Below are positions 445-58,195 of a stretch of 64,000 nt of DNA, in pieces. This DNA is from Octopus vulgaris (lineage: Eukaryota). The notes under the pieces were generated by a model. It did not search any database. It saw only the letters and a list, made by a program, of their open reading frames with translations, and had not been told where the DNA came from. Numbering within the stretch: the first letter of the stretch is position 1; the number at the start of each line of letters is the position of its first letter. Made by a program: the position numbers and the translations under genes. The stretch is from the NCBI GenBank assembly GCA_951406725.2, contig OX597830.1, forward strand, positions 11,718,001 to 11,782,000, read 5' to 3'.

Positions 445-700
445 TTAGGAGTGGGAGGGGTGTGCAGATCAAATATTTGTAGCAAGGCAGATGTGTGAGA
501 AATTTTTAGCAAAAGAGAAGGATGTGAATTGAGCCTTTATGGATCTAGAAAGCATGTAAATGGTAGATTGTTGAGGGCAGTACAAAATTTTTATAGAGAA
601 AACAGGGCGTGCGTTAGGGTGGGTGGTGAAGTGGTTTGATGTGAATGTGGGGTTAATACAAAGTTGTGTGATGTCTCTGTGGCTGTTTAATTTATACATT
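445..700 (+). pseudogene. RTE-type LINE reverse transcriptase fragment
   Basis: RSGRGCADQIFVARQMCEKFLAKEKDVN*AFMDLE ... WFDVNVGLIQSCVMSLWLFNLY (degenerate QGC.MSP.LFN); has a stop and deletions. Confidence 0.8.
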
Positions 701-719
701 CTGTATTCGTTTTAAAACC

Positions 720-1802
720 TTTTGTGTTTGTTGGAGAAAGAGAACGAGAACTTATTTTGTTTTTTCTTCCGCCTTGCAACTGACCATTCCTCCTCACTTA
801 CCTCGGTAGATGTGGACGGTCTAGCTTCCTCTGCGCAATCCTCTTCCACTGTCTTCTCTGCCTCTTCCAGCTTCTCTACCTCCTCACCTGGAGCGTCCTC
901 GTTAGGCTTTTCTTGCTGTTCCTTTTGTTCATCCTGTTTTTCCCCCCTGTGCTTCAGGTTGAAGGATCTGGGGGCACGTTTTCCATATGTGTCCCTTCAG
1001 TCCGCACTAGAAACACCTTGGGGTTCTGTTCTGGACCGAGACTCAGTTTTGTCTCATCAGGCAGAATTATAAATTCTGGAATTTCCTCCAATTCTGCTGG
1101 TGTGTCTTGAATTGTCGCCCGAAAACTCCCACCACACCAGTTCTGCATTTTTTCCCCCTCGAACTCCAGCAGTTTCACCTCCTCCTTGATACTGGAGCAA
1201 GCGGCTGCCAGAAGCCACACCGATCTAATTTCGGGTGGATAACCTTCTATTGCGATTTTTGTGGTTCTTTTGCCAAGGTATGACGGTAAAAGAGCCGGCT
1301 CGTTCGTGTGTAGGGTCGCGGAATCCTCCCTAGCGTCGTATTCTGACTTGAATTGTACCTCGATGGTACCGAATTTCTTTCCTCTTTTCATGAATGCCAC
1401 CTTGAACAATATAGGCTTTAAGGTCTTTTCAACTTCTTCAGTAGACACCAATCTTCGTTTTAAAAGATAGTGTTTTATAAATTATTGTCCTTTTTCTTGT
1501 TTCTTCACGTTTGCTCCCTATTCTCGCAGAAATGGTTGAAATTTTTTCACGGCCTCTGGCCTGATGTTGTATCTTCTTTGTTTTTTACCGACCTCTGCTG
1601 CATAACCTTCCACACTTTCTTCTGAGTCACTCCAACACTTCATACAAACCATTAGTCATTCTGTGCGGGTTCAATTACCACACAAAATGCAAACAATTCA
1701 CCCCTAATGGAAGAACACGAGGTGGTCCCAATGGGAACAACTGCAACAAAACGACGTCAAACAACAAATAACCAACCGCAACTCAAGGAAACACGGCACA
1801 CT
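720..1802 (-). mobile_element. Tx1/L1-like ORF1 (gag-like) element, degenerate, with 5' UTR
   Basis: ORF 954-1451 (FGTIEVQF, LLPSYLGKRTTKIAIEGYPPEI, NWCG, EIPEFIILPD) followed in another frame by the knuckle RCF*CGLKGHIWKTCP (CX2CX4HX4C); homologous to the copies at 47.3-51.8 kb and 56.2-57.5 kb. Confidence 0.8.
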
Positions 1803-1990
1803 GTTGATTCTTTATTAGCCACTAAGGACTCAGACGCAGATACGGACGATACAAGGACAGACAAGACAGTACAAGTGAGGACATAAAACATACAACGATG
1901 AATGAAAAATGACAAATGTACAAAAAGGGGATGGTCGTCCTTGCTTGAGCCCCACCCTCAAGCAATCGCGTTTACTGTTCTTTACAATCC
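1803..1990 (-). mobile_element. 3' tail module of the ORF1-only element family (hairpin + AATAAA)
   Basis: Similar to 47293-47410 and 50829-50990; hairpin ttgcttgag-ccccacc-ctcaagcaa at 1941-1965. Confidence 0.7.
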
Positions 1991-2029
1991 AATTAATTAT
2001 CAGTCTGAAATCCAAGTTATCATAACCTT

Positions 2030-2206
2030 TGTACGGTTTAGGACAATTGCCTTGCTATCTCACAGGGGTGTCAGGATTTCACCACAACAATTCGGTACAG
2101 TGGAGGTAAGATTCGCCTTCACAGAAAAAGCAGTAAAGAACTCCACTGCACCTATAGGAAATAAGAAATGAAGGCTCCTGCCAATTTAATTGGATAGAAG
2201 AATAGG
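2030..2206 (+). pseudogene. ORF1 fragment of the same family, inverted
   Basis: FGTVEVRFAFTEKAVKNSTAPIGNKK*RLLPI*LDRRIGRVRVDK aligns with the FGTIEVQF...LLPSYLGKR segment. Confidence 0.65.
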
Positions 2207-2632
2207 TAGAGTAAGGGTTGACAAGTAAATACATTTCTTTTATTTATTATCTTTATTACCCCCCCCCCCACCTTTTTTTTTTCAATTTCCCGGGAAGAAA
2301 TTAGAATATTTTTTTTTTTCGTTTTGGTTCTCCTTGCAAAAGTTCCGTTTGCTTTCTTTTCCTAGTCGCTGTACTCGTTGGTTCGATTATTCCTTGAGGT
2401 GTCCGGATGTCAAAAATACCATGAAGACATTCCACGTCTTATTCTTTCTTCCGTAAACCTTTTTTTTCAGTTGGTTTATGTGTCTCTTGTGTTCCCACGT
2501 ACGACCTTTTCGACATGTACATTATTTTTCCTAAACGTTTACTTATTGTAACTTCTTAACTTTCCGTTCCGTTTCTGTATATTTAAAAAGAAAAACAAGG
2601 TTCTTTTTTTAAGTATTTCACCTTATTATGTA

Positions 2633-2981
2633 CTAGCAGTATCGCCCGGCGTTGCTTGGGTTTGTAAGGGAAATAACTATATAAGCATTTTTAGAGATGT
2701 AAAGGGGAGTGTTACTGTAGCTTTTTACGTTCTGAGATTTAATAATACATTTTTAGAGAGTTACTTCCCTTATATATGCCAAAAATGCATTAAAAATGGG
2801 AAAAATTGATGGTAATTTTTTTTTAAATCGTAGACGCGCGCTAATACCCAGAATGGCTCGATATGAATCACGACTATAAGATACCCGGTTTTGGTTACAC
2901 TGCACCGCAAAATGTGGGAGTAGTTAGGAATCTAAATCGTAGGAGACAGACAGCACACAACCTCACTTTTATATATAAAGA
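2633..2981 (-). mobile_element. Non-autonomous Helitron (family H1)
   Basis: Minus strand starts TC and ends with a GC-rich hairpin then CTAG, inserted between A and T; near-identical to 13752-14058. Confidence 0.85.
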
Positions 2982-2999
2982 TTTCATCATGAAGCATTT

Positions 3000-3935
3000 C
3001 ATCCCATTTTCGGTGTTTCTCTCCGTTTTTTTCTTTTCTTCCCGGTAGTAATTTGTCAAACACTGACCTGACTTTCCTGATGAACATTAGTTCAGCTGGC
3101 AACACACCTGATGTGGTGTTGGGGTTAGGGGATATTGGGAAGACACTTAAGGATTGCGTCATTGCAGTATCAGCTAGTAGTTCATTCTTAGATTTTTTCA
3201 GCTAGTCCATTCAATCTCGGATGGTATGGTGGAATAGTAATATGCTCTATTGCATGCATTTTGCGAAAGTTTTTACATTCCTTTGATATAAACTGTGTTC
3301 CGTTATCAGACACTATAGTGTCTCAGACACCATATCGCGCAAAAAGTTCGTTCAGAAATTCCATCGTTACTTTGGAGGTTGGCTTCCTGCATTTACATAT
3401 TTTCGGCCATACAAAAGAAAATATTCTTCCTTCCTATCCGTGGTCTGCTGTTCTTTCTTTTCCTGCATGCTGGGAGTCTCTTTGTTATTTTGCTGTGGTG
3501 TGTCGCTTTCTATCTCTGTTGTTTTTGGGTTATTTTCATCTTCTTTTTGGAAGTTTTCAGGGACGAGTCACCCATACCTCTCTTTTCATTCGGGAATTCA
3601 ATTACCTCTGGAATCTCGTTCATATCGACCAGAGTTATCTGAACCAACAACTCAAGGCCGTATCCCCAGCAGTTTAGTTTCTGCGTTCTTGCAGCTGACA
3701 TAATGCTGGGTTCTTCTTTTGTAGTGGATAGGACTTGTCAACCCTATCCACGACTATTAGATAATACCCGCTATTTAACGGTTCTGCAAAGTGTATGCGT
3801 AATCTTGACCAAGGTACGTCAGTGTTGGGCCAAGGCTGAATTTTTATAGGTGGTGCCTTTGCTGCCAGGAAACAACTCCTGCAGGCTTTTACCAATTTTT
3901 CAATATCCTCGTCCATATTCGGCCAGTAACCATCA
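3000..3935 (-). pseudogene. Ty3/Gypsy integrase fragment, interrupted at about 3410-3745
   Basis: YWPNMDEDIEKLVKACRSC..PWSRLRIHFAEPL..YLIVVD, then FARYGV*DTIVSDNGTQFIS..PPYHPRLNGLAE and TPNPNT..PAELMF. Confidence 0.9.
3410..3745 (-). pseudogene. ORF1-family fragment nested inside the Gypsy integrase
   Basis: NCWGYGLELLVQITLVDMNEIPEVIEFPNE matches N.WGYGIEV..EMPETLELPNG of the 48.8-kb copy. Confidence 0.7.
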
Positions 3936-3944
3936 TTCCATCCT

Positions 3945-4190
3945 TTCATTTATTCATTTTACTTTTTCAGTTTCATTCGATTTTGGTCCTACGTGTAAAG
4001 TGCTGTGTTGTCCCCTCTTTGTTTAGCCCCCTGTGGGCAATAAAAACTTCAACAGTGTGGGATGTTCAGGTACTTTGTGACGACTGTCGTAAAAGTCCTT
4101 GAGAAGAGATATTGTCTGTTACGTGTCGTTTCTGATTTATATTTGTATTGTTATAACCTTGTAGCGGACGCTTAGTGAAATTTTCTCTCT
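3945..4190 (+). mobile_element. Tail-plus-head junction of the ORF1-only family
   Basis: gtcccctctttgtttagccccctgtgggcAATAAAaacttcaacAGTGTG; same junction as 1790-1825 on the minus strand (AATAAAagaatcaacAGTGTG). Confidence 0.6.
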
Positions 4191-8990: not shown

Positions 8991-9134
8991 AGCGCGGAAC
9001 ATGGCTTCTTGGAAAACGTACGTGAATAGTTACTTTTATTTTGGCAACTTTCAGATAATGAAGATCACTTTGGAAGCACCTACATTGCTAGAAATAAGAG
9101 CTAAAATGCTTTAAAGCTGCCGAAGTAGAGCCAG

Positions 9135-9185
9135 TCCTTACTGATGAGGCCATGGAAATTGCCGAAACTGAATTTAGTATAAGGA
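9135..9185 (+). ncRNA. Type I hammerhead ribozyme
   Basis: tcctta-CTGATGA-ggc..gcc-GAAA-ctgaatttag-TA-taagga: full core, 6-bp helix I, self-complementary helix III, GUA cleavage triplet. Confidence 0.85.
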
Positions 9186-13196: not shown

Positions 13197-13457
13197 TCGG
13201 TGGAATTTGACCTCAGACGAAATGCCTATTTCTTTATTACCCACAAGGGGCTAAACACAGAGGGGACAAACAAGGACAGACATAGGTATTAAGTCGATTA
13301 CATCGACCCCAGTGCGTAACTGGTACTTAATTTATCGATCCCGAAAGGTTGAAAGGCAAAGTCGATCTCGGCGGAATTTGAACTCAGAATGTAGCGGCAG
13401 ACGGAATACCGCTAAGCATTTCACCCGGCGTGCTAACGTTTCTGCCAGCTCGCCGCC
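13197..13457 (-). mobile_element. SINE family A, plus a short partial second unit
   Basis: Full-length match to the other family A copies. Confidence 0.9.
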
Positions 13458-13751
13458 TTCCAGGACTAGTTACCATGTCGAACTGTAATAAGCAGAGGTG
13501 ATTTTACATTTGCCGACCGTGAGCACGTAGTGGTAGATAGGTTGACCGAGAAGTAGAATTCAGAGGAGCTTTGCTGTATGCTCAACAAAACAGGCCACAC
13601 TCTCATGATTCCAAGATAAACTATATACTACTAGTGGCGAGGTAGAGGAAAAAATGTTAAATGACCGAGAATAGAACATTTACTAGTAAAATTCATGAAT
13701 ACGAAAGTATCAAAGCAAAAACGATAAATTTCTGAAGAGATATATATTTTA

Positions 13752-32361: not shown

Positions 32362-33521
32362 TGTGTGTGTATCTTCGTCTCTCTCATCAACTAATCATTT
32401 AGCTCCACCGCCACCACATTCCCTTCCGCTAGATACCCTCCTCTCACCTCTCTCTCTCTTACCTCCCACCGCTAGCTCGTCCCATGCCACTAATCACTCT
32501 TATCTCTCTATATATTAGCGACTGGGACAGTGTTAAAACTGAGAGCTAATATTTATCCTCACTTAAACGTGGATGTTCCGTTAGAACAAACTATACTGCA
32601 ATAGAAGCCACGAGATCAACTTTTCATACTGGATTTTGGAGCAAAATGCACCCTTATCTATATAGCTGTTGGAGAGATAAATCCCCATCACATCCAACGC
32701 TAAGACAACCATGTCACGTGATTTCGACCTTCATTAGTTTTTGTCAATGATGGACGCTCGATCCCTCGAGATAGCAGCAACTCACCTCACTGCCAGCGAT
32801 AAATAGAATAAAAGTGCCAGGAGAGGCGTTGGTGTCGCAATTAGCCAGTGAGGTTGTTAGAAAACATTCATTAGCGACAGACGCTGTATTATTAATACCG
32901 GTCTCTTGTCTCCCCCCCCCGCTCTCTCTCTCAGCATAACATATGTACACTACTATAATAATATCATAGATGTTACCGAATAAATAACTATCAATTTTGA
33001 AAACAATCTAGGTTTTAAAATAAGAATTGGATAATTAGCATTCCTACCAAACTGTACGACTTCAGTATTTGAAACAAAATAAATATTTTACATATTTGTT
33101 GCATGTATTATCAAAACCGATAAAGCATTCAGAAAAAAGGACAAAACTTTGCTGAATGTTTTGTTTTCAAACAATAAAATGCTCAGTGTGTAATTAGTAG
33201 GTTATTCTAATATGCAATGCAATTAAACGATAAAAATGACGCTATATTTCCAAAATTATCTCGAAACATCTCTTATCTAGTGATAGTAGGTGTAATTAAT
33301 GTGCCAGACGAATGAAAGAAAGGAAATGCTTTTCATTGCTTGTTGATACAAAAAAAAAAAGAAAGCAAAAACAAAAAACAACAAAAACAACTACAAAATA
33401 GAAAGATTATTAGTGCAGAAGAATGAGGTATTTGAGTGTGATTTATAGAAATTTTCAGAGAAAAGTTTTGTACATATTTGGTATGAAGAAAACGTCCAGC
33501 GAGTCGCAAATTATGGCTGTA

Positions 33522-45969: not shown

Positions 45970-47200
45970 GAAATCAAGAGTAGTTTGTCACCACGTGCAA
46001 TTTTCGCTGTTTTCTTAACATAGGTTTTCTTATTTTCTTTCACGTGTCGGTGTTAATGATTGAAATGTCACTACCAGTGTCCAGTTGTAATTGATTATTT
46101 ACTCCATTTACTTTTATGTGTACAAATTTCCTTATTTGGAAGTCGATTTTACTTTCTGCTGAGAAAACTTTAGCATTTTTTACATTTGACCTTCGTACTT
46201 TTGTCCTGCAGTGTGAATTCCTGTGTCCAAATTTTTGACAACTGTAACATTTTTGGTTTTTAAAAGGACAATCTTTTCTGAAATGTAGGCCCACACATTC
46301 GTAACATTCTTTGGTTATACTTTCTCGGTCGACGTATCTGTAATTTGGCGAAATCCTTTTCGTCCTTTGACACTCTTCTGCAACAGTCAGTAAGGCTAAA
46401 TCTCGTTCACATTTTGAAAGATTTCTTGCCCGTATTTCTGTATCTTCATTTGCTGTAAAGCTTTGTTCAAAACATTTCAGGAGTAAGTTATTTAAGTTTA
46501 AAACTGTCACACATTCTGTTGACTGTTCCTGCATGCGTAATAAAGTCACCACCCTCTTTTTAGTTAAATTCCAAAACTCCATTGGAGTGTTAAATAGAGA
46601 AGTTTTATCACCGAACAAGTCAGACAGTAATTTAATTTTCTTGAAAACAAATTTCACTAGACTTTTTGGGTAATATGAAATTACAGTTCATGCGCAGACA
46701 GAGCTAATTTACGTAATAATGACCCTACTTTTTCTTCGTCTGACCATGTTTTGCAATCCTCCTTCAAAATTTCCTCGTACCTTCTGTAGTACACTGCAAA
46801 AGATACACCCTCCTCTGGGCTATAACTGATTTCTGTTATGGAGTGCAATACACCGTCCGGCGAAAACGAACTTACCGCATTTAAAATTCCAATAATTGTT
46901 GTTGTGGTTGTACTAGTTGATTCTGCAACTCCGGTTGCTGTTCTTGTTATTGTTTTTGCAACTGTATTGTAGAAGCTAATAGGTCCTCCCTCATTTAACA
47001 AGTTGTATCACGAACAAATTGTTAAATAACCTATGTGAGCTTCGAGACCCTCGTCGCCAGATGTTGTATCCTCCGTCTCCAGCGTCGTGGTACCGCCACG
47101 ATATTGTGACGGATGGTTTAGATACACTGTACCAGTGTTGTAACAGTAAACAACCACAAAATAAAAACGATGCAGCCGTAATAACAACGTAACGATCCAA
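45970..47200 (-). mobile_element. Ty3/Gypsy gag-protease relic with primer-binding site and LTR end
   Basis: Minus strand ..ACAACA-tc-TGGCGACGAGG (PBS 47049-47059); CYECVGLHFRKDCPFKNQKCYSCQKFGHRNSHC knuckles; protease LQLDTGSDISIIN. Confidence 0.92.
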
Positions 47201-47292
47201 CCATATCTTCACGAACCAACAATCAATATTCCAAACGAACTAACCAGCCGACAACTTCCGACTTCACTGCGAATTCAACTCGAACTAACACT

Positions 47293-49545
47293 AATTCTTT
47301 ATTCAAGCACTCTGGCTTTTGCACAGAAGGGACAGCACAAGGACAGACAGAACACCACAGTGGAGATAAAAAACAAAAGGAATGAAAATGAGACAAATGT
47401 TATATAATAAATGAAGATGGAATGACCACAAGATTTTCCATTTTTCAAAACTTTAAAGTTCAAAAAACTTTTACAAATGTTCACACTTTTTAAAACGACA
47501 AGTTGACAGAAAAAGATGCGTGGTAAGTAGCTTGCTAACCAACCACATGGTTCCGGGTTCAATCCCACTGCGTGGCATCTTGGGCAAGTGTCTTCTGCTA
47601 TAGCCTCGGGCCGACCAATGCCTTGTGAGTGGATTTTGTAGACGGAAACTGAAAGAAGCCTGTCGTATATATGCATATATATATATATATGTATGTGTGT
47701 GTATATGTTTGTGTGTCTGTGTTTGTCCCTCTAGCATTGCTTGACAACCGATGCTGGTGTGTTTACGTCCCCGTAACTTAGCGGTTCGTCAAAAGAGACC
47801 GATAGAATAAGTACTGGGCTTACAAAGAATAAGTCTTGGGGTCAATTTGCTCGACTAAAGGCGGTGCTCCAGCATGGCCGCAGTCAAATGACTGAAGCAA
47901 GTAAAAGAGTAAAAGAGTAAAGTCTATACGCAGTCTTGAAATTAAATGTCACTCACCATTTTATCATATTTTTTTTATCTCCTTGTACTCCATCACTGAT
48001 GGGCGAGGTTCATTTTCCACTTCCGGTCCCAGTGGATTGATGTCCGAAGGGAACGCCACCTTCAATGCACTATACTTCACCTCGTCAGTCAAGATACACT
48101 TCAGGTCCCTGTCGTACCCCTCTTCCAGATTTATTTTTACAATTCCCTTCAATTTTGCAATGCTTCTCTCTATTTTTAATGTTGTCTTGTAGGTCACTAG
48201 GAACATTTTATTTCTGTCTCTGTCATGTGTGTCTTTTGTTCTATGTTTTTATGTTTTTGTGATTCTGTTTTATTTTTTGTTTGTCTGTCTGTTCTTTTTT
48301 GTCACTGTATATATGAATGTTTGTGTGTCTGTAAGTCAGTCTGTAAATCTGCGCTTCGTTAGTACGTCTGTGCGTTTCGGTTTCTGTAATTCTGGTTTTT
48401 CTAGTGTCTGTTTTTCTATATTTCTGTAGTCTGCTTGTCTTCGTGTTTATGTGTCTGTGGGTCTGGATTTTTGTGTGCTTGGAAGTCTGTATGTTTGTCT
48501 AGCACTGTTCCGTCTGTGCCATTTTTAACTGAAGATCCTATTGGCGTACTCCTTTTACTTAACATTGCTGGCTGTTTTTTTCTTTAGTTTTATGTTCTTT
48601 TGTTCCATCAGCATAGGCGACCTTTTCCTCTCTCTTTTCCTCAATTTTATCTCCACAAAATCTTCCTGTTCCATCAGCTGTTCCTCCTCTCTTTCTCTTT
48701 CTTGATTTTCAGTTTCTGCCATTTCGTTTACTGTCCTAGGGCACTTCCTTTTTAATAACCCCTTTTCGCCGCACCCATAACATTTAGGAGGTCTTCCCTC
48801 ACCAACATTATCTCCATCTTATCCCCATTGGGAAGCTCCAAAGTTTCTGGCATCTCTTCATATCGATCCTGGCCCATCGCGCAAATTACTTCAATCCCGT
48901 ACCCCCACTAATTCACTGGTTGGGTCCGGTTCATTAATATCATCCTCAACTTTTCATTGTTTCTATCTTTATCATTCGCAAAAATTCCTGTAATAATCCA
49001 TTCAGGATCAATGCGGGGTGGGATACTGCCCACCCTAACTGTAGACACTCGTCTGTCAAAATTGGGTATCAATATCCATTTCAAACCGAACTTTACCTCA
49101 GAGGCGTATTTTTTTGCGTTTTCCTCCAGAACAAAAGTAATCCCCATTGATGCGTATCCTTTACCTCTCGTATAGAACGATGTTTTGTCTTTAAAGTAAT
49201 CCTCTTTTATTTCATCTATTTCTTCTTGCGGTGCGTTTTCGAGTCTTCTACTCTTGTTCGAAAAAGTTCTCTTTTCACTTTTTCTCCCTCTGGTAGGGTC
49301 AACTTAATATTCGACCCCCTCTCCTTACCATGTTTTTATATTTCTTGTACAGCTCTTCCTTACTCCGCAACAATTCCTACTTCATCGACAGAAGGTCGGC
49401 TTTCCGTTGCCGCGGCATAACTCTTCTTTATATCGCCAAAAATTCACCACCACCAAACACTAGTGGCTTTACACAAAAAACTGCTGCAAGCAGCACCAAA
49501 AACAACAACCGTTTACAACAAAACTTTCAGCAGAAATCAAATGAT
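47293..49545 (-). mobile_element. ORF1-only retroelement copy 1 (SINE D inserted in its 3' UTR)
   Basis: SYAAA, LIPNFDRRVSTVRVGSIPPRIDPEW, VEGRPPKCYGCGEKG, C-terminus AFPSDINPLGPEVENEPRPSVMEYK* then 3' UTR and AATAAA tail; no EN or RT motifs in between. Confidence 0.8.
47519..47921 (+). mobile_element. SINE family D
   Basis: Near full length. Confidence 0.92.
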
Positions 49546-50828
49546 GATGAAATGGCTGCATGAGCCCCATTCTCATGCAGTACCATTTGAACGTTTTTAT
49601 AGACAGTTTCTAATCTTTTCTTTTTTCCTTTTGTTTTTTTTCATTAGCATCGTTTTTTAAAAAAAATTTTACTTATTCTATTTTCTTTAATAGTTCATAT
49701 ATAATTCCAATTCTTTTTCTTTTTCTGCCTCTACGGAGGAGAGCTTATTCTTTCTTTTCTTTTACATTTTTTAACCACTGTGAACGCTTCTTCTGTTATT
49801 ACCATCTCCTTCACACCATCTTGTACCACTTCGTCCACCTCTTGTTTTTCAGACTGTTCCATTTGTTGTTCTTTCTCTCTCTGGGGGCACCTCGCCTTCA
49901 TGTGGCCTTTCCCCCGCATTGATAGCATATAGGAGGCCTGCCCTCCACTACCACTCTCAGCCTCACATCCTCTGGTAAAATTATTTCCTCTGCAATTTCG
50001 TTTGAGTCTCTCAAACTTGCTTATATGGCCATCGCTATGCCATAACCCAACCAATTTAACCTTTTGGTTTTGTTACTTTAAGTATTTTTATGTCTTCCTC
50101 CTTGTTAAACATTATCGCTGCTACCAACCATGTTACATTTATTTCTGGGGGTACTTTTCTCACTCTCATCCTGGCAACACACTTGCCACAGTACGTTGGA
50201 AAAGTACCCATTTTTCTGTCTGGCTACAGTGGAGTGCTTTATCACTTTGTCTTCAGTCGCGAATCGCGCCTCCACTGTGCCATACTTTCAACCTTTTATG
50301 ATGAAAGTGGTGAACTTCTTGATCTCTTTTAAACACTCTTTAACAGCTTCGATAGTTGCGATTTCAATTTTTCTCGATGACACTTTCAGGGTTTTGTATA
50401 TCACAGTTCTTTTTATCACCCCATTCTTTAATTCATTTGAGGGGCTTAATTTTAGAATATTACCTTCTCTTTTCAGCAATTTCTCACACTCTTTCAGCTT
50501 CCTCGGTTCCACCTTCATCTCATGAACCTCTAAAGCGTCAGAGTTCACTCCTCTGCCAGTTGCGGCCGCATAACTGTGGCCTTTTGCTGGTCCACTTTCC
50601 ATGTTCTTCTCTTCTCAGGGAACCTGAGAAGAGAAGAACATGGAAAGAACGAACACAAATCAACAACTCGTATGTAAAAATAGCAGCATCAATTGCAACA
50701 TTCAACAATCGTAGGTACACCCACGAGGGGAGACCTTCAACAAATCAACAAATATATTATAACATCACTTACTTCTACGGAGTCACAAGGATTTAACACA
50801 CCACGCTGTAGAAACTCGAATTAACACT
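49546..50828 (-). mobile_element. ORF1-only retroelement copy 2
   Basis: MESGPAKGHSYAAAT.., FPTYCGKCVARMRVRKVPPEINVTWLVAA, VVVEGRPPICYQC; 3' UTR hairpin at 49556-49580; 5' end AGTGTTAATTCGAGTT. Confidence 0.8.
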
Positions 50829-51810
50829 TATTCTTTATTAAGCACTCAGGCTTTTACACAGAGGGGACATCACAAGGACAGACAGAACACCACAGTGGGA
50901 ACAAATAACATAAAACGAATGAAAATGGGGAAAATATATAATAAATGAAAAGGAAATGGCTGCATGAGCCCCATTCTCATGCAGTACCATTTCAACTTCT
51001 TACTGGCAGTTCATAATCTTTTCTACTTTCCTTTTGTTTCTTTCCATTAGTATCGTTTTTTTAAAAGAAATTTTACTTACTCCTTTTTTTTAAGTTCATA
51101 AATGGTTCTAATCCTCTATATTCCATCACTGGCGGTAGTTCATCAAACTCCACCTCAAATCCCGGCGGATCGATATTCCTTCCAAATATTTCCTTTAACC
51201 TGTTGTACCGCTCTTTATTCCCTAACAATTGCTCTCACATTTTCCGTGTAAATCTCTGTAGGCAACTTAATCCTTATTATGGATTTAAACTTCATTATCT
51301 TTTTTTCTATCGCCGTGCTCTTGGCGTATGTCACGAAATTCCACTTATGCTTCTTCGGCTTTCATATCTGTTTGTTTTTTCCTTGCTCCACCCTTGGCGC
51401 CATTTTCGAGATGCCCCCTCTCTGGGGGCACCTCGCCGTCATGCGCGCCCCCCGCCCCCCGCATTGATAACACATTGGAGGCCTGCCCTCCACTACCACT
51501 CCCAGCCCCACAACCTCCGGCAAATCCACCTCCTCTGCAGCTCTGTCCAAGTCACCCAAACCTGCCCGTACGGCCATCTCCACGCCACAACCCAAACAAT
51601 CCAACCCACTGGCTCCCGCCACCCCAAATCACCTCTACGTCCTCCTCCATGCCAAACATTACCTTTGCCACCAACCACGCTTCATCCACTTCCGAGGTCG
51701 CCCTTCCCACTCTCACCCCGGTAACACGCCCGTCACAGTAAACCGGCAATAGCACCCATGCCTCCGTCCCTTCGCTTAGGTATTTTGAACTTTGGTTACA
51801 AATCCAGCGT
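50829..51810 (-). mobile_element. ORF1-only retroelement copy 3, 5'-truncated
   Basis: LLPVYCDGRVTGVRVG..AWLVA, VVVEGRPPMCYQCG..RCP, C-terminus FGRNIDPPGFEVEFDELPPVMEYR then 3' UTR, hairpin 50960-50984 and tail. Confidence 0.8.
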
Positions 51811-51818
51811 GTACTTAT

Positions 51819-56075: not shown

Positions 56076-56149
56076 AACGATTACCACCCATGTAAATTTA
56101 TTTTTCTTTTCATAACTTCATTTAATTTTGCACGTTTTTATTTTCAAAT

Positions 56150-57241
56150 TTTCTTCGAACATTTGCTTCGAAGAAAGTAAACATTGAAGATGGCGACGAA
56201 AAGCTGGAGTGAAGAAAGAAGGTGGCACGGCAATTTGCATGTGGACTTCCCCGTCCTCCCCACCACGATTGGCAGCAGACAACAGAGAGAAAAGAAGGAC
56301 GAAGAAGAAGTGAAGAGCCAAGAAAAGAAGAAAGAAGAGGAAAAGCAGAAAAGGCGAGAGAAAAGAAAGAGTAAAGTCTTCCTCACTACATGGAAATTGT
56401 ATTAGCACGAAGAACAACATTGACAACAGCGGCTGCGAAGAATCTAACAAAAATGGAATTAGCGGTGGGGAAGAAACTTTTGCAGATATCACAAAAGCTT
56501 GGGTTAACATCTCATTGGAGAACAAAATTGAAAAACTAAACAAGGCAGTAGAATTTATGAAAATGAATGGGAGTAGGGCAGAATCGACGCCTCCGAACAA
56601 CTGCTCAGAGCAACAGCGAAACGAACAGTCGTCTACAGGTGTGTAAACACAAATACAAGGAAGCTCGAAAATGCTAAACGCGACCAGGTGGAAATAGCCC
56701 TGAAAAACATATGGCAAGATATCCACTACATTGCGAGAGAGAGGCAGTAAAGCGGGGTAGAGGTCCTTTTTAAGACCTTTTAAAGCAGGCAATGCAGAAC
56801 TAGGTGATCACCGAGGAAATTACCCTCTTCCCAACGTATGTGGGAAGGAGAGTGGTACGAATCACAATACCTGCAGTCCCGCCAGGATTGGATCTATGGT
56901 AGAGTCTCGTGTGTATTTGTAGGGACGGCGGGCTGGAAAAATCCCCTGGACGTAAAAAGATCGAGAAGGGAGAATTGGCTTGGGACAACCGTGGAGGTTC
57001 TTCTCCACGTGAAACCAGAGCAGTTAGAGGAAGTCCCAGACTTGATTTCCCTCTCGAATGGAGTAGCTTTGAGGGTGATCGTGGAGGGCAGAAAGACGAG
57101 ATACCACGATTGTAGTTTAACAGCCCACTTACGGTTTTTCTGCCCACAGAACCAGAGTAGCAGGACAGAAAGAAATGACCAAACGAAGGTACCTCCACCA
57201 GCACCAGCACCAGCACCATCACCACCACCATCACCACCACA

Positions 57242-57309
<68 letters not shown>

Positions 57310-58195
57310 GAGAGGCAAGGGAACAGAAACAGAAATGGAACCCAAGGAGACAAAACAGAAAGATGTCACAGTAAAGGTGGCAGTGGGGGTTCCCAGCGGA
57401 ACCCAACAAAACAGACAGGGTGGGAGAACTACTCGAACACAAACAGCACCAGGAGAGTAAGTGACACGCTCTGTTTCCTTTGCTCACTTTCTGGCCAGCA
57501 TGGCGGTTCTTAAAGTAGGGTGTGTAAATAAATGTACGTGGCTTGGGGGTCGTCGTGGAAGCAAGGACGCTTGCGCAACGACCTCAGGTGGCTTAGTTTG
57601 GATGTAATAGCTGTCAGTGAGACACACGGACCTTGGCTCCCATTTTCGATGACTTTGAGATTTTCGCATCTCTTGTCAACTGGGAATGGTGGGGTGGGGT
57701 GGCAGTGTTGTTCAGAAAAGGCCTGGATCTTGAGATACGGTCAGTCTTCCTGGACCCGGAAGGTAAGTCGGTGGTCCTGGACGTGAGGGACAACGAAGGC
57801 AGTGCTTTTAGACTGGTCGCAGTGTACGCACTGGTTTGGGGCAGCCGGAGTTCTTCAGACACCTGGAGGCCTTTTTAGGGACGTCTCGCTCTTTAGTGGT
57901 AGTGGGCGATCGGGAAGCCATTTTAGATGCGCGTGTGGATTGGGTGGGGCTAGCGGATAGGAAAGCGAGGTGCGCAAGCTTTGCAAACCTGCTTAGTCGT
58001 TTCCAGTTGGCGGACAGGTTCAGACTGGATGTCCTGAACACTCCAGTGTGGACATGGGCAAACAGTGTCAGGTCATCCAGATCTTATCTAGATAGGGTAC
58101 TTTGTAGGCCAGCAGTTAGGAATAGCATAGGGTGTCCACAATTTGAAATCATCAACTACACAGACCACACATTTGTGATCTATACAGTTGACCTT
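56150..58195 (+). mobile_element. Tx1/L1-like LINE: ORF1 plus APE endonuclease of ORF2, truncated before RT
   Basis: ORF1 LFPTYVGRRVVRITIPAVPPG, NWLG, EEVPDLISL..VIVEGR + decayed knuckle; ORF2 from 57500 MAVLKVGCVN/VRGL..LDVIAVSETH..VVVGD.EA..SYLDRVL..YTDH. Confidence 0.9.
57243..57308 (+). repeat. (AAC)n expansion within ORF1
   Basis: About 22 units, read directly. Confidence 0.95.

Follow-up and report, generated by a model that had tools for sequence, protein, structure and literature searches.

Junctions between LINE tails and Gypsy LTRs in Octopus vulgaris point to insertion at a fixed distance behind TATA promoters

Results

Two arrays of LINE units in the window

The window analysed here is a stretch of 64,000 nucleotides of Octopus vulgaris DNA, in which four junctions join the 3' tail of a LINE unit to a downstream sequence beginning with or containing AGTGT. 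The AATAAA of the tail begins at 50839, 47303 and 1816 on the minus strand and at 4039 on the plus strand, and AGTGT lies at 50828, 47292 and 1802 on the minus strand and at 4054 on the plus strand. The four junction strings quoted in the original prediction are all present (that for 1802 with one surplus A), and two further parts of it hold: the tail is not followed by poly(A) at any of the four junctions, and an ORF1 lies downstream at 50828 and 1802. The pattern AATAAA-N3-10-AGTGT matches the window five times against 0.98 expected, a count of at least five being reached by 1 of 100 shuffles; the fifth match, at 33173, is unrelated to the four junctions. About 130 nt of tail can be aligned among the four, and past AGTGT there is only short similarity, which pairs 50828 with 47292 and 1802 with 4054.

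The first pair belongs to an array on the minus strand in which three decayed units (51818-47293) precede part of a Gypsy element:

50829-51818, minus strand: unit 1, an ORF1-only LINE, decayed and 5'-truncated, whose 3' end is the shared tail (AATAAA at 50839-50834).
50813-50828, minus strand: junction A, a target-site duplication (TSD) that copies the first ~16 nt of R of Gypsy LTR family 1, the same target as at 47292 (comparison with locus L061).
50796-50810, minus strand: part of the unit-2 head that may be a 5' tag, weakly resembling the start of R of LTR family 2 (score 12).
49540-50795, minus strand: unit 2, comprising head and ORF1 (ATG at 50602; CCHC knuckle), its tail end deleted (tblastn).
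47293-49440, minus strand: unit 3, a divergent ORF1-only unit interrupted by a SINE (47517-47921) and ending in a tail that was assigned by position (AATAAA at 47303-47298).
47062-47292, minus strand: junction B, R-U5 of a Gypsy 5' LTR of family 1, from its predicted start to the CA end (LTR comparison).
46000-47059, minus strand: primer-binding site (47059-47049) and broken Gypsy gag/protease region (PF23309, E 1e-8).

The U3 of the LTR at junction B was not found within the window. A 53-nt near-perfect palindrome (50595-50647) lies just ahead of the ORF1 start of unit 2.

The second pair lies in and around a Gypsy element of another LTR family:

3935-4158, plus strand: junction D, a tail (AATAAA at 4039-4044) followed by ACAGTGTG (4052-4059) and by family-2 R-U5 up to the LTR end (LTR comparison).
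2223-3923, minus strand: integrase and 3' internal region of a family-2 Gypsy element, holding an ORF1 fragment (3734-3579) and an unrelated insertion (2627-2983).
2026-2089, minus strand: U3 of a Gypsy 3' LTR (family 2) in which the TATA is mutated and the 22 nt after it are missing (LTR comparison).
1805-2025, minus strand: a short 5'-truncated unit, tail only (AATAAA at 1816-1811).
1797-1804, minus strand: junction C, with TSD-like ACAGTGTG derived from the start of R in LTR family 2 (comparison with locus L256).
690-1796, minus strand: an ORF1-only unit of a second subfamily, its 3' end missing (tblastn).

The interval 2025-690 thus adds two decayed units, one of them reduced to its tail. 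The family-2 integrase (3923-2990) and U3 (2089-2026) both lie on the strand opposite to the R-U5 behind 4054. Because an intact version of this arrangement is seen at locus L072, an inversion has probably divided a single 3' LTR between junctions C and D, D then being the other end of the array at C in inverted orientation; this unity rests on the arrangement, the best BLAST matches between the tail at D and the subfamily at C being just 37-44 nt long.

What had been described as four separate loci is therefore better regarded as two insertion sites, namely a three-unit array within one Gypsy 5' LTR (50828 and 47292) and a second LTR family that holds both 1802 and 4054, probably within a single LTR divided by the inferred inversion. 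The reported lack of a TSD is likewise reversed, since the sequence that follows each tail is the TSD itself, and the GT-rich, 5'-UTR-like tract said to lie downstream is at 47292 and 4054 the R-U5 of an LTR and not a LINE 5' UTR. Neither array in the window retains an intact joint between U3 and a unit, so that their origin has to be read from genomic copies.

Genomic copies of the tail

From the 2.8-Gb genome, 463 candidate tail copies were obtained, and the best 30 by search score (i.e., not a random sample) were examined: 15 run into LTR R-U5, 5 into the next unit and 4 into other recurring repeats, while 6 are unclassified. The sequence after the tail is thus not random. With the Gypsy families pooled, 15 of 30 tails end in LTR R-U5, a share above the level of more than 20% of flanks in one sequence type that has been used for target-specific Tx1 elements (PMC4494074). 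AGTGT itself is not a family motif, as it occurs within 10 nt of AATAAA in just 6 of these 30 copies, read by eye.

Units occupy the boundary between U3 and R in several Gypsy LTR families, in 5' as well as 3' LTRs and in sense orientation. Three loci are decisive. L061 has a complete 5' LTR and a 3' LTR in which the order is U3, a 9-nt duplication, the unit, the duplication again and R-U5; L070 shows a like split of the 5' LTR, with a 17-nt duplication and an intact 3' LTR; and at L072 a 5'-truncated unit is likewise placed at +30, between U3 and R-U5. These loci represent insertion into DNA with a TSD, and therefore exclude concatemers formed by template jumping as well as a tail that is part of the LTR. 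The TSDs are of variable length (11-25 nt in 51 rows, median 17 nt), truncated copies with TSDs occur, and the 3' end is defined, all of which are hallmarks of target-primed reverse transcription (TPRT).

At 16 hand-picked sites of LTR type the TSD starts 29-32 nt past the first base of the TATA word despite differing R starts; these sites represent 9 families by eye and fewer clusters by script, families 8 and 9 being putative LTRs and the TSD starts of L222, L228 and L235 being set by analogy, without a matched 3' copy.

Spacing between TATA words and insertion sites

For a broader count, 190 oriented loci yielded 220 ORF1 heads: 78 lie behind a tail, 45 have no tail in the fetched DNA, 32 have no TSD (77 of 220 are thus without a usable TSD) and 65 have a TSD. 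Removal of exact duplicates reduced these 65 to 58. For the count by cluster, seven of the 58 rows (L080, L118, L119, L121, L123, L161 and L270) were dropped as head-to-head or shifted matches or as weak AT-rich matches and 16 sites were added by eye, giving 67 sites in 28 target clusters; these clusters are partly interdependent, and the loci had been picked by best search score.

The word TATAWAWR, with at most one mismatch, occurs 26-33 nt upstream in 17 of the 28 clusters (binomial p 5e-11), whereas shifted control windows contain a TATA-like word with a mean frequency of 0.097 and a maximum of 0.214. The distance from TATA to TSD peaks at 29-31 nt. Recounts give the word in 12 of 19 when restricted to rows found by script, and in 35 of 58 rows when none is dropped; in the antisense control it is found in 0 of 16. 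No base consensus at the nick emerges over the 28 clusters, the first TSD base being A in just 14 of them. What the sites have in common is accordingly not one conserved target sequence at the nick but a fixed distance to a core-promoter element, as for Ty3 and TRE5-A.

The TATA word is missing in 11 of the 28 clusters and present for just five of ten TSD-bearing 5'-truncated copies; the subfamily of L161 frequently lands at TATA-less sites; and in one subfamily the TSD starts 34-38 nt from the TATA. Targeting behind TATA is thus a strong tendency that varies by subfamily.

Other targets are also of note. Arrays at L117, L118, L120, L121, L125 and L161, spread over several contigs, start 31-33 nt past a TATAAAG that seems to be part of a sister family's deleted ORF1; they may go back to one old event that was amplified. 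Tandem repeats whose motifs are by eye hammerhead-like are the target of sister subfamilies (L166-L172, L208-L219 and L089-L110), which enter them about 28 nt past a TATA-like word. At L088, L115, L124 and L151 the target combines CCAAT boxes with TATAAAA and lies ahead of a long repeat that bears an ORF.

The ORF1-only units and their probable partner

The upstream unit is an ORF1-only LINE of ~1.8 kb, whose intact relatives have a single ORF of about 440-470 aa; no ORF2 remnant was found in any of the five short units tested. HAL1 (half-L1) is likewise an ORF1-only, non-autonomous derivative of a LINE, and we know of no site targeting by HAL1. A Pfam search of 31 ORFs from the window returned no LINE domain, and the decayed ORF1s were recognised by tblastn instead. 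The ORF1 of the short units has a CCHC knuckle (zf-CCHC). Its predicted model has a mean pLDDT of 59.6, rising to about 80-90 over residues 30-220, and the predicted core matches tandem-RRM structures with E ~1e-4 and low TM-scores; the combination of RRMs and CCHC knuckle that characterises ORF1 in the L1/Tx1 group is thus present, the RRMs being those of the predicted model. A search for ORF1 homologues found nothing at E<=0.001 among 7995 candidates, and the sole match of the ORF1 profile to a fish homologue was the knuckle, with a probability of 11.5%.

A genome search with zf-RVT uncovered many intact ORF2s of 1130-1148 aa. All three ORF2s analysed contain Exo_endo_phos (PF03372), RVT_1 (PF00078) and zf-RVT (PF13966), that is, an N-terminal APE, a reverse transcriptase (RT) and a C-terminal zinc finger; the best match among solved structures is human L1 ORF2p (E 4e-66), with R2 at 4e-26, and a homologue is present in Argonauta. 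None of the 120 homologues listed for ORF2 is a labelled Tx1 reference. Judged by these sequence and structure matches, the autonomous partner is a non-LTR retrotransposon of the L1/Tx1 group. The intact ORF2 elements have the same 3' tail as the short units, share some targets with them and are intermixed with them in arrays; it is likely that these APE and RT elements supply the enzyme to the ORF1-only units, which would borrow ORF2 through the shared tail.

The window itself holds a 3'-truncated autonomous member (56100-58195, plus strand) consisting of ORF1 and the start of the endonuclease; by eye it appears to lie inside Helitron helicase DNA, and there is no clear TATA upstream of it. 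A less TATA-tied autonomous subfamily (L161:2100-2160, L163 and L164) has its own TATATAAAG in the 5' UTR.

Discussion

A proposed mechanism of insertion and array growth

The junctions are most readily explained as a LINE 3' tail followed by a TSD, produced by an L1/Tx1-type lineage, with intact APE and RT members and ORF1-only passengers, that enters Gypsy LTRs and other repeats in sense orientation, ~30 nt past their TATA; we hold this reading with good, though not complete, confidence. The spacing between a TATA box and the transcription start is canonical and was used to place the predicted +1; on this basis the landing spot is likely to be the transcription start of the host repeats, and the TSD would comprise the first ~9-25 nt of the host transcript. 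In TPRT, as known from L1, the first nick sets the tail-side start of the TSD. Here the tail-side end of the TSD is fixed and the other end variable, which would put the priming nick in the template strand, at the predicted -1/+1.

The U3 promoter would survive upstream of each insertion and keep drawing new copies, and later copies would therefore enter at the same base, building arrays in the order tail, TSD, head; the arrays do have the local TSD between their units. Transcription of the first unit would probably be driven by the host promoter and start exactly at the 5' end of the unit, the TSD serving as leader. The cue to the position is most likely TBP, the pre-initiation complex or DNA distorted by that complex, and not sequence: a fixed distance without a sequence consensus favours either tethering, by TBP or by the initiation complex, or the nicking of distorted DNA. 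Between the two, a protein tether appears to have slightly better than even prospects, and an endonuclease that reads DNA structure is a possible but lesser candidate.

This proposal also recasts the first of the explanations offered in the original prediction, namely insertion of new copies precisely where a resident copy begins. The outcome is as described (78 of 220 ORF1 heads follow a tail); the cause differs, as the upstream host TATA promoter would fix the site and the resident 5' end would merely coincide with it, first insertions entering naive LTRs.

Borrowed promoters might leave 5' tags. In a test for such tags, 4 of 51 reached a score of at least 10, against 1 and 0 in controls, two of the four matches having been added after being seen; at a score of at least 9 there were 5, against 7 and 3 in controls. 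The head of unit 2 (50810-50796), which entered the test after its tag had been noticed, would weakly suggest an earlier host promoter. At L099:1356-1390, two additional bases lie between the TSD and, after it, a second copy of the first 15 nt of a sister target, which looks like a clear 5' tag. A more far-reaching interpretation strikes us as an even bet: that the lineage reads the Pol II pre-initiation complex and not DNA sequence, inserts at +1 of TATA promoters with near-nucleotide precision and replaces the host transcript; that Gypsy LTRs serve it as safe, renewable promoters which are silenced in passing; and that 5' tags record this history.

Alternative explanations

The best-surviving alternative, which we nevertheless consider unlikely, is ordinary sequence-specific targeting of the Tx1 kind, in which the endonuclease of each subfamily reads a short sequence of a repeat and the TATA spacing arises incidentally, from the closeness of those sequences to promoters. 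In line with it, subfamilies favour groups of targets (LTRs for the type in the window, hammerhead-like repeats for L166-L172), many LTR targets start with (G/A)GT, and target choice in Tx1 elements has been credited mainly to the endonuclease (PMC4494074). What speaks against it is that a single tail subfamily enters R starts as unlike as AGTGTTAG, GGTACAG, CAAGCAG and AGTTGAC, 29-32 nt from TATA, and that the 28 clusters provide no base consensus. Within a single subfamily, pure sequence specificity may nevertheless apply.

Decidedly less probable is a relay of the HeT-A kind, in which the tail is both promoter for the next unit and next landing site, so that arrays grow 3'. The precedent of HeT-A for a promoter in the tail (10.1101/782904) lends it some appeal, as do the 11 of 30 subfamily tails in which a TATA-like word, mostly TGTAAAAG, precedes the junction by 30-32 nt, one tail with TATAAAAG (L002) and a junction order at L126 that is consistent with insertion behind a resident tail. 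Yet in a wider set just 3 of 58 tails have such a word, and those tails form arrays too, while first insertions require a host U3. TGTAAA, moreover, is a weak or dead variant of TATA. The tail as promoter or pseudo-LTR, the second of the explanations first proposed, is thus unlikely; a relay could possibly run in addition to insertion behind host TATA promoters. Arrays of the HeT-A type would be terminal, without TSDs and with a promoter in the 3' UTR; those of octopus are interstitial, with TSDs, and the TATA-like word of their tails is not conserved.

Template jumping or circular intermediates, by which the RT, having copied an LTR or LINE RNA over its full length as far as the cap, would switch to the 3' end of another RNA, would account for junctions at a predicted RNA 5' end and for the lack of a proper U3 joint in the window arrays, and are very improbable: at L061, L070 and L072 a U3 lies directly upstream of the unit and the partner LTR is intact, and every junction bears the TSD of its own local target, for which reason the third of the first-proposed explanations, concatemers, is rejected. 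An extra G at some junctions was considered as cap-derived and ruled out, the G being encoded by the target.

That the tail is a U3 part of the LTR or a Penelope pseudo-LTR, or that the loci are one segmental duplication, can be dismissed: although the sequence downstream of 47292 and 4054 is indeed ordinary LTR R-U5, intact LTRs carry their own U3 and not this tail (most of 30 family-1 loci have a TATA-bearing U3, and the two with a LINE tail in front are joined to it ~30 nt past the expected TATA position), tail variants and targets are freely combined across many contigs, and the partner encodes an APE and an L1-type RT, with neither the GIY-YIG or endonuclease-less PLE-type RT nor the pseudo-LTRs of Penelope elements, an Rfam scan having found no match, and so no hammerhead, at the junctions.

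Relation to known systems

That Tx1 elements home into transposons, including LTR elements, is already known (PMC4494074), target-specific examples being Tx1L in Tx1D, crocodilian Tx1-Mar, Tx1-8_Crp and Tx1-4_AMi. The octopus lineage resembles them as an APE, RT and zf-RVT LINE with TSD-separated tandem copies and with a non-autonomous passenger that has a common target, and transcription driven by the flank has been proposed there as well; it differs in that each of those families has one target sequence or repeat, whereas here insertion is tied to TATA across unrelated targets without a consensus at the nick, and the passenger keeps ORF1 (PMC4494074).

Position-specific insertion set by the transcription-initiation machinery is likewise found in the LTR elements Ty3 and Tj1 and in TRE5-A, an L1-clade element of Dictyostelium: Ty3 inserts within 1-4 nt of the Pol III start, and the ORF1 protein of TRE5-A binds TBP, Brf1 and Bdp1 (PMC5911963). 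Those elements, however, address Pol III genes via TFIIIB, and TRE5 lies ~44-54 bp upstream in opposite orientation (PMC5911963), whereas the octopus lineage enters the predicted +1 of LTR TATA promoters in sense, and contact with a factor is here hypothetical.

HeT-A, with TART and TAHRE, offers a parallel for an ORF1-only element with head-to-tail arrays, an autonomous partner and 5' tags from an upstream promoter; it adds to chromosome ends and has the promoter in its own 3' UTR (10.1101/782904), whereas the octopus arrays, interstitial and with TSDs, begin downstream of a U3 that is foreign to them. Double insertion at a preserved target is known to yield head-to-tail copies split by a TSD, as in R1 arrays (10.1101/158386), and the TSD-separated tandems of SINEU-3 arose from repeated insertion (PMC4494074); for double-insertion tandems and R1 the preference is for a sequence motif or the rDNA site and not for a fixed distance from TATA (10.1101/158386).

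The literature surveyed, which did not extend to Repbase entries or to the supplements of PMC4494074, where positions of the crocodilian LTR insertions might be given, contains no account of a LINE that targets TATA+30. The octopus repeat-annotation paper lists L1-Tx1 families, and the passages surveyed have no match for 'target', 'nested' or 'promoter' (PMC13282606).

The usual explanation for site specificity in LINEs is that their endonuclease prefers certain sequences. If the present reading is true, a LINE at TATA+30 of many unrelated promoters would be the Pol II counterpart of Pol III position targeting (PMC5911963); this would explain both how targets are switched and how the elements live without a promoter of their own, and would make such LINEs parasites of LTR retrotransposons, which they sever from their promoters. 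With young intact copies in the genome the tether is testable, and the mechanism might suggest how to put genes under the control of an endogenous promoter.

Additional observations

Long young arrays of near-identical ORF1-only units are present at L111-L112 (C4:70.04-70.06 Mb) and L115-L116 (C4:27.05-27.07 Mb); some of their junctions have A-runs of up to ~28 nt and others none. At 9129-9173 of the window (plus strand) there is a weak hammerhead match, with an E of 0.16 and under the family cut-off. Finally, the tail is also carried by a tRNA-type SINE, at 13220-13459 of the window (minus strand) and at L062, L064, L090 and L199, and 5 of 12 SINE tails enter position ~50 of the same SINE, giving nested chains.
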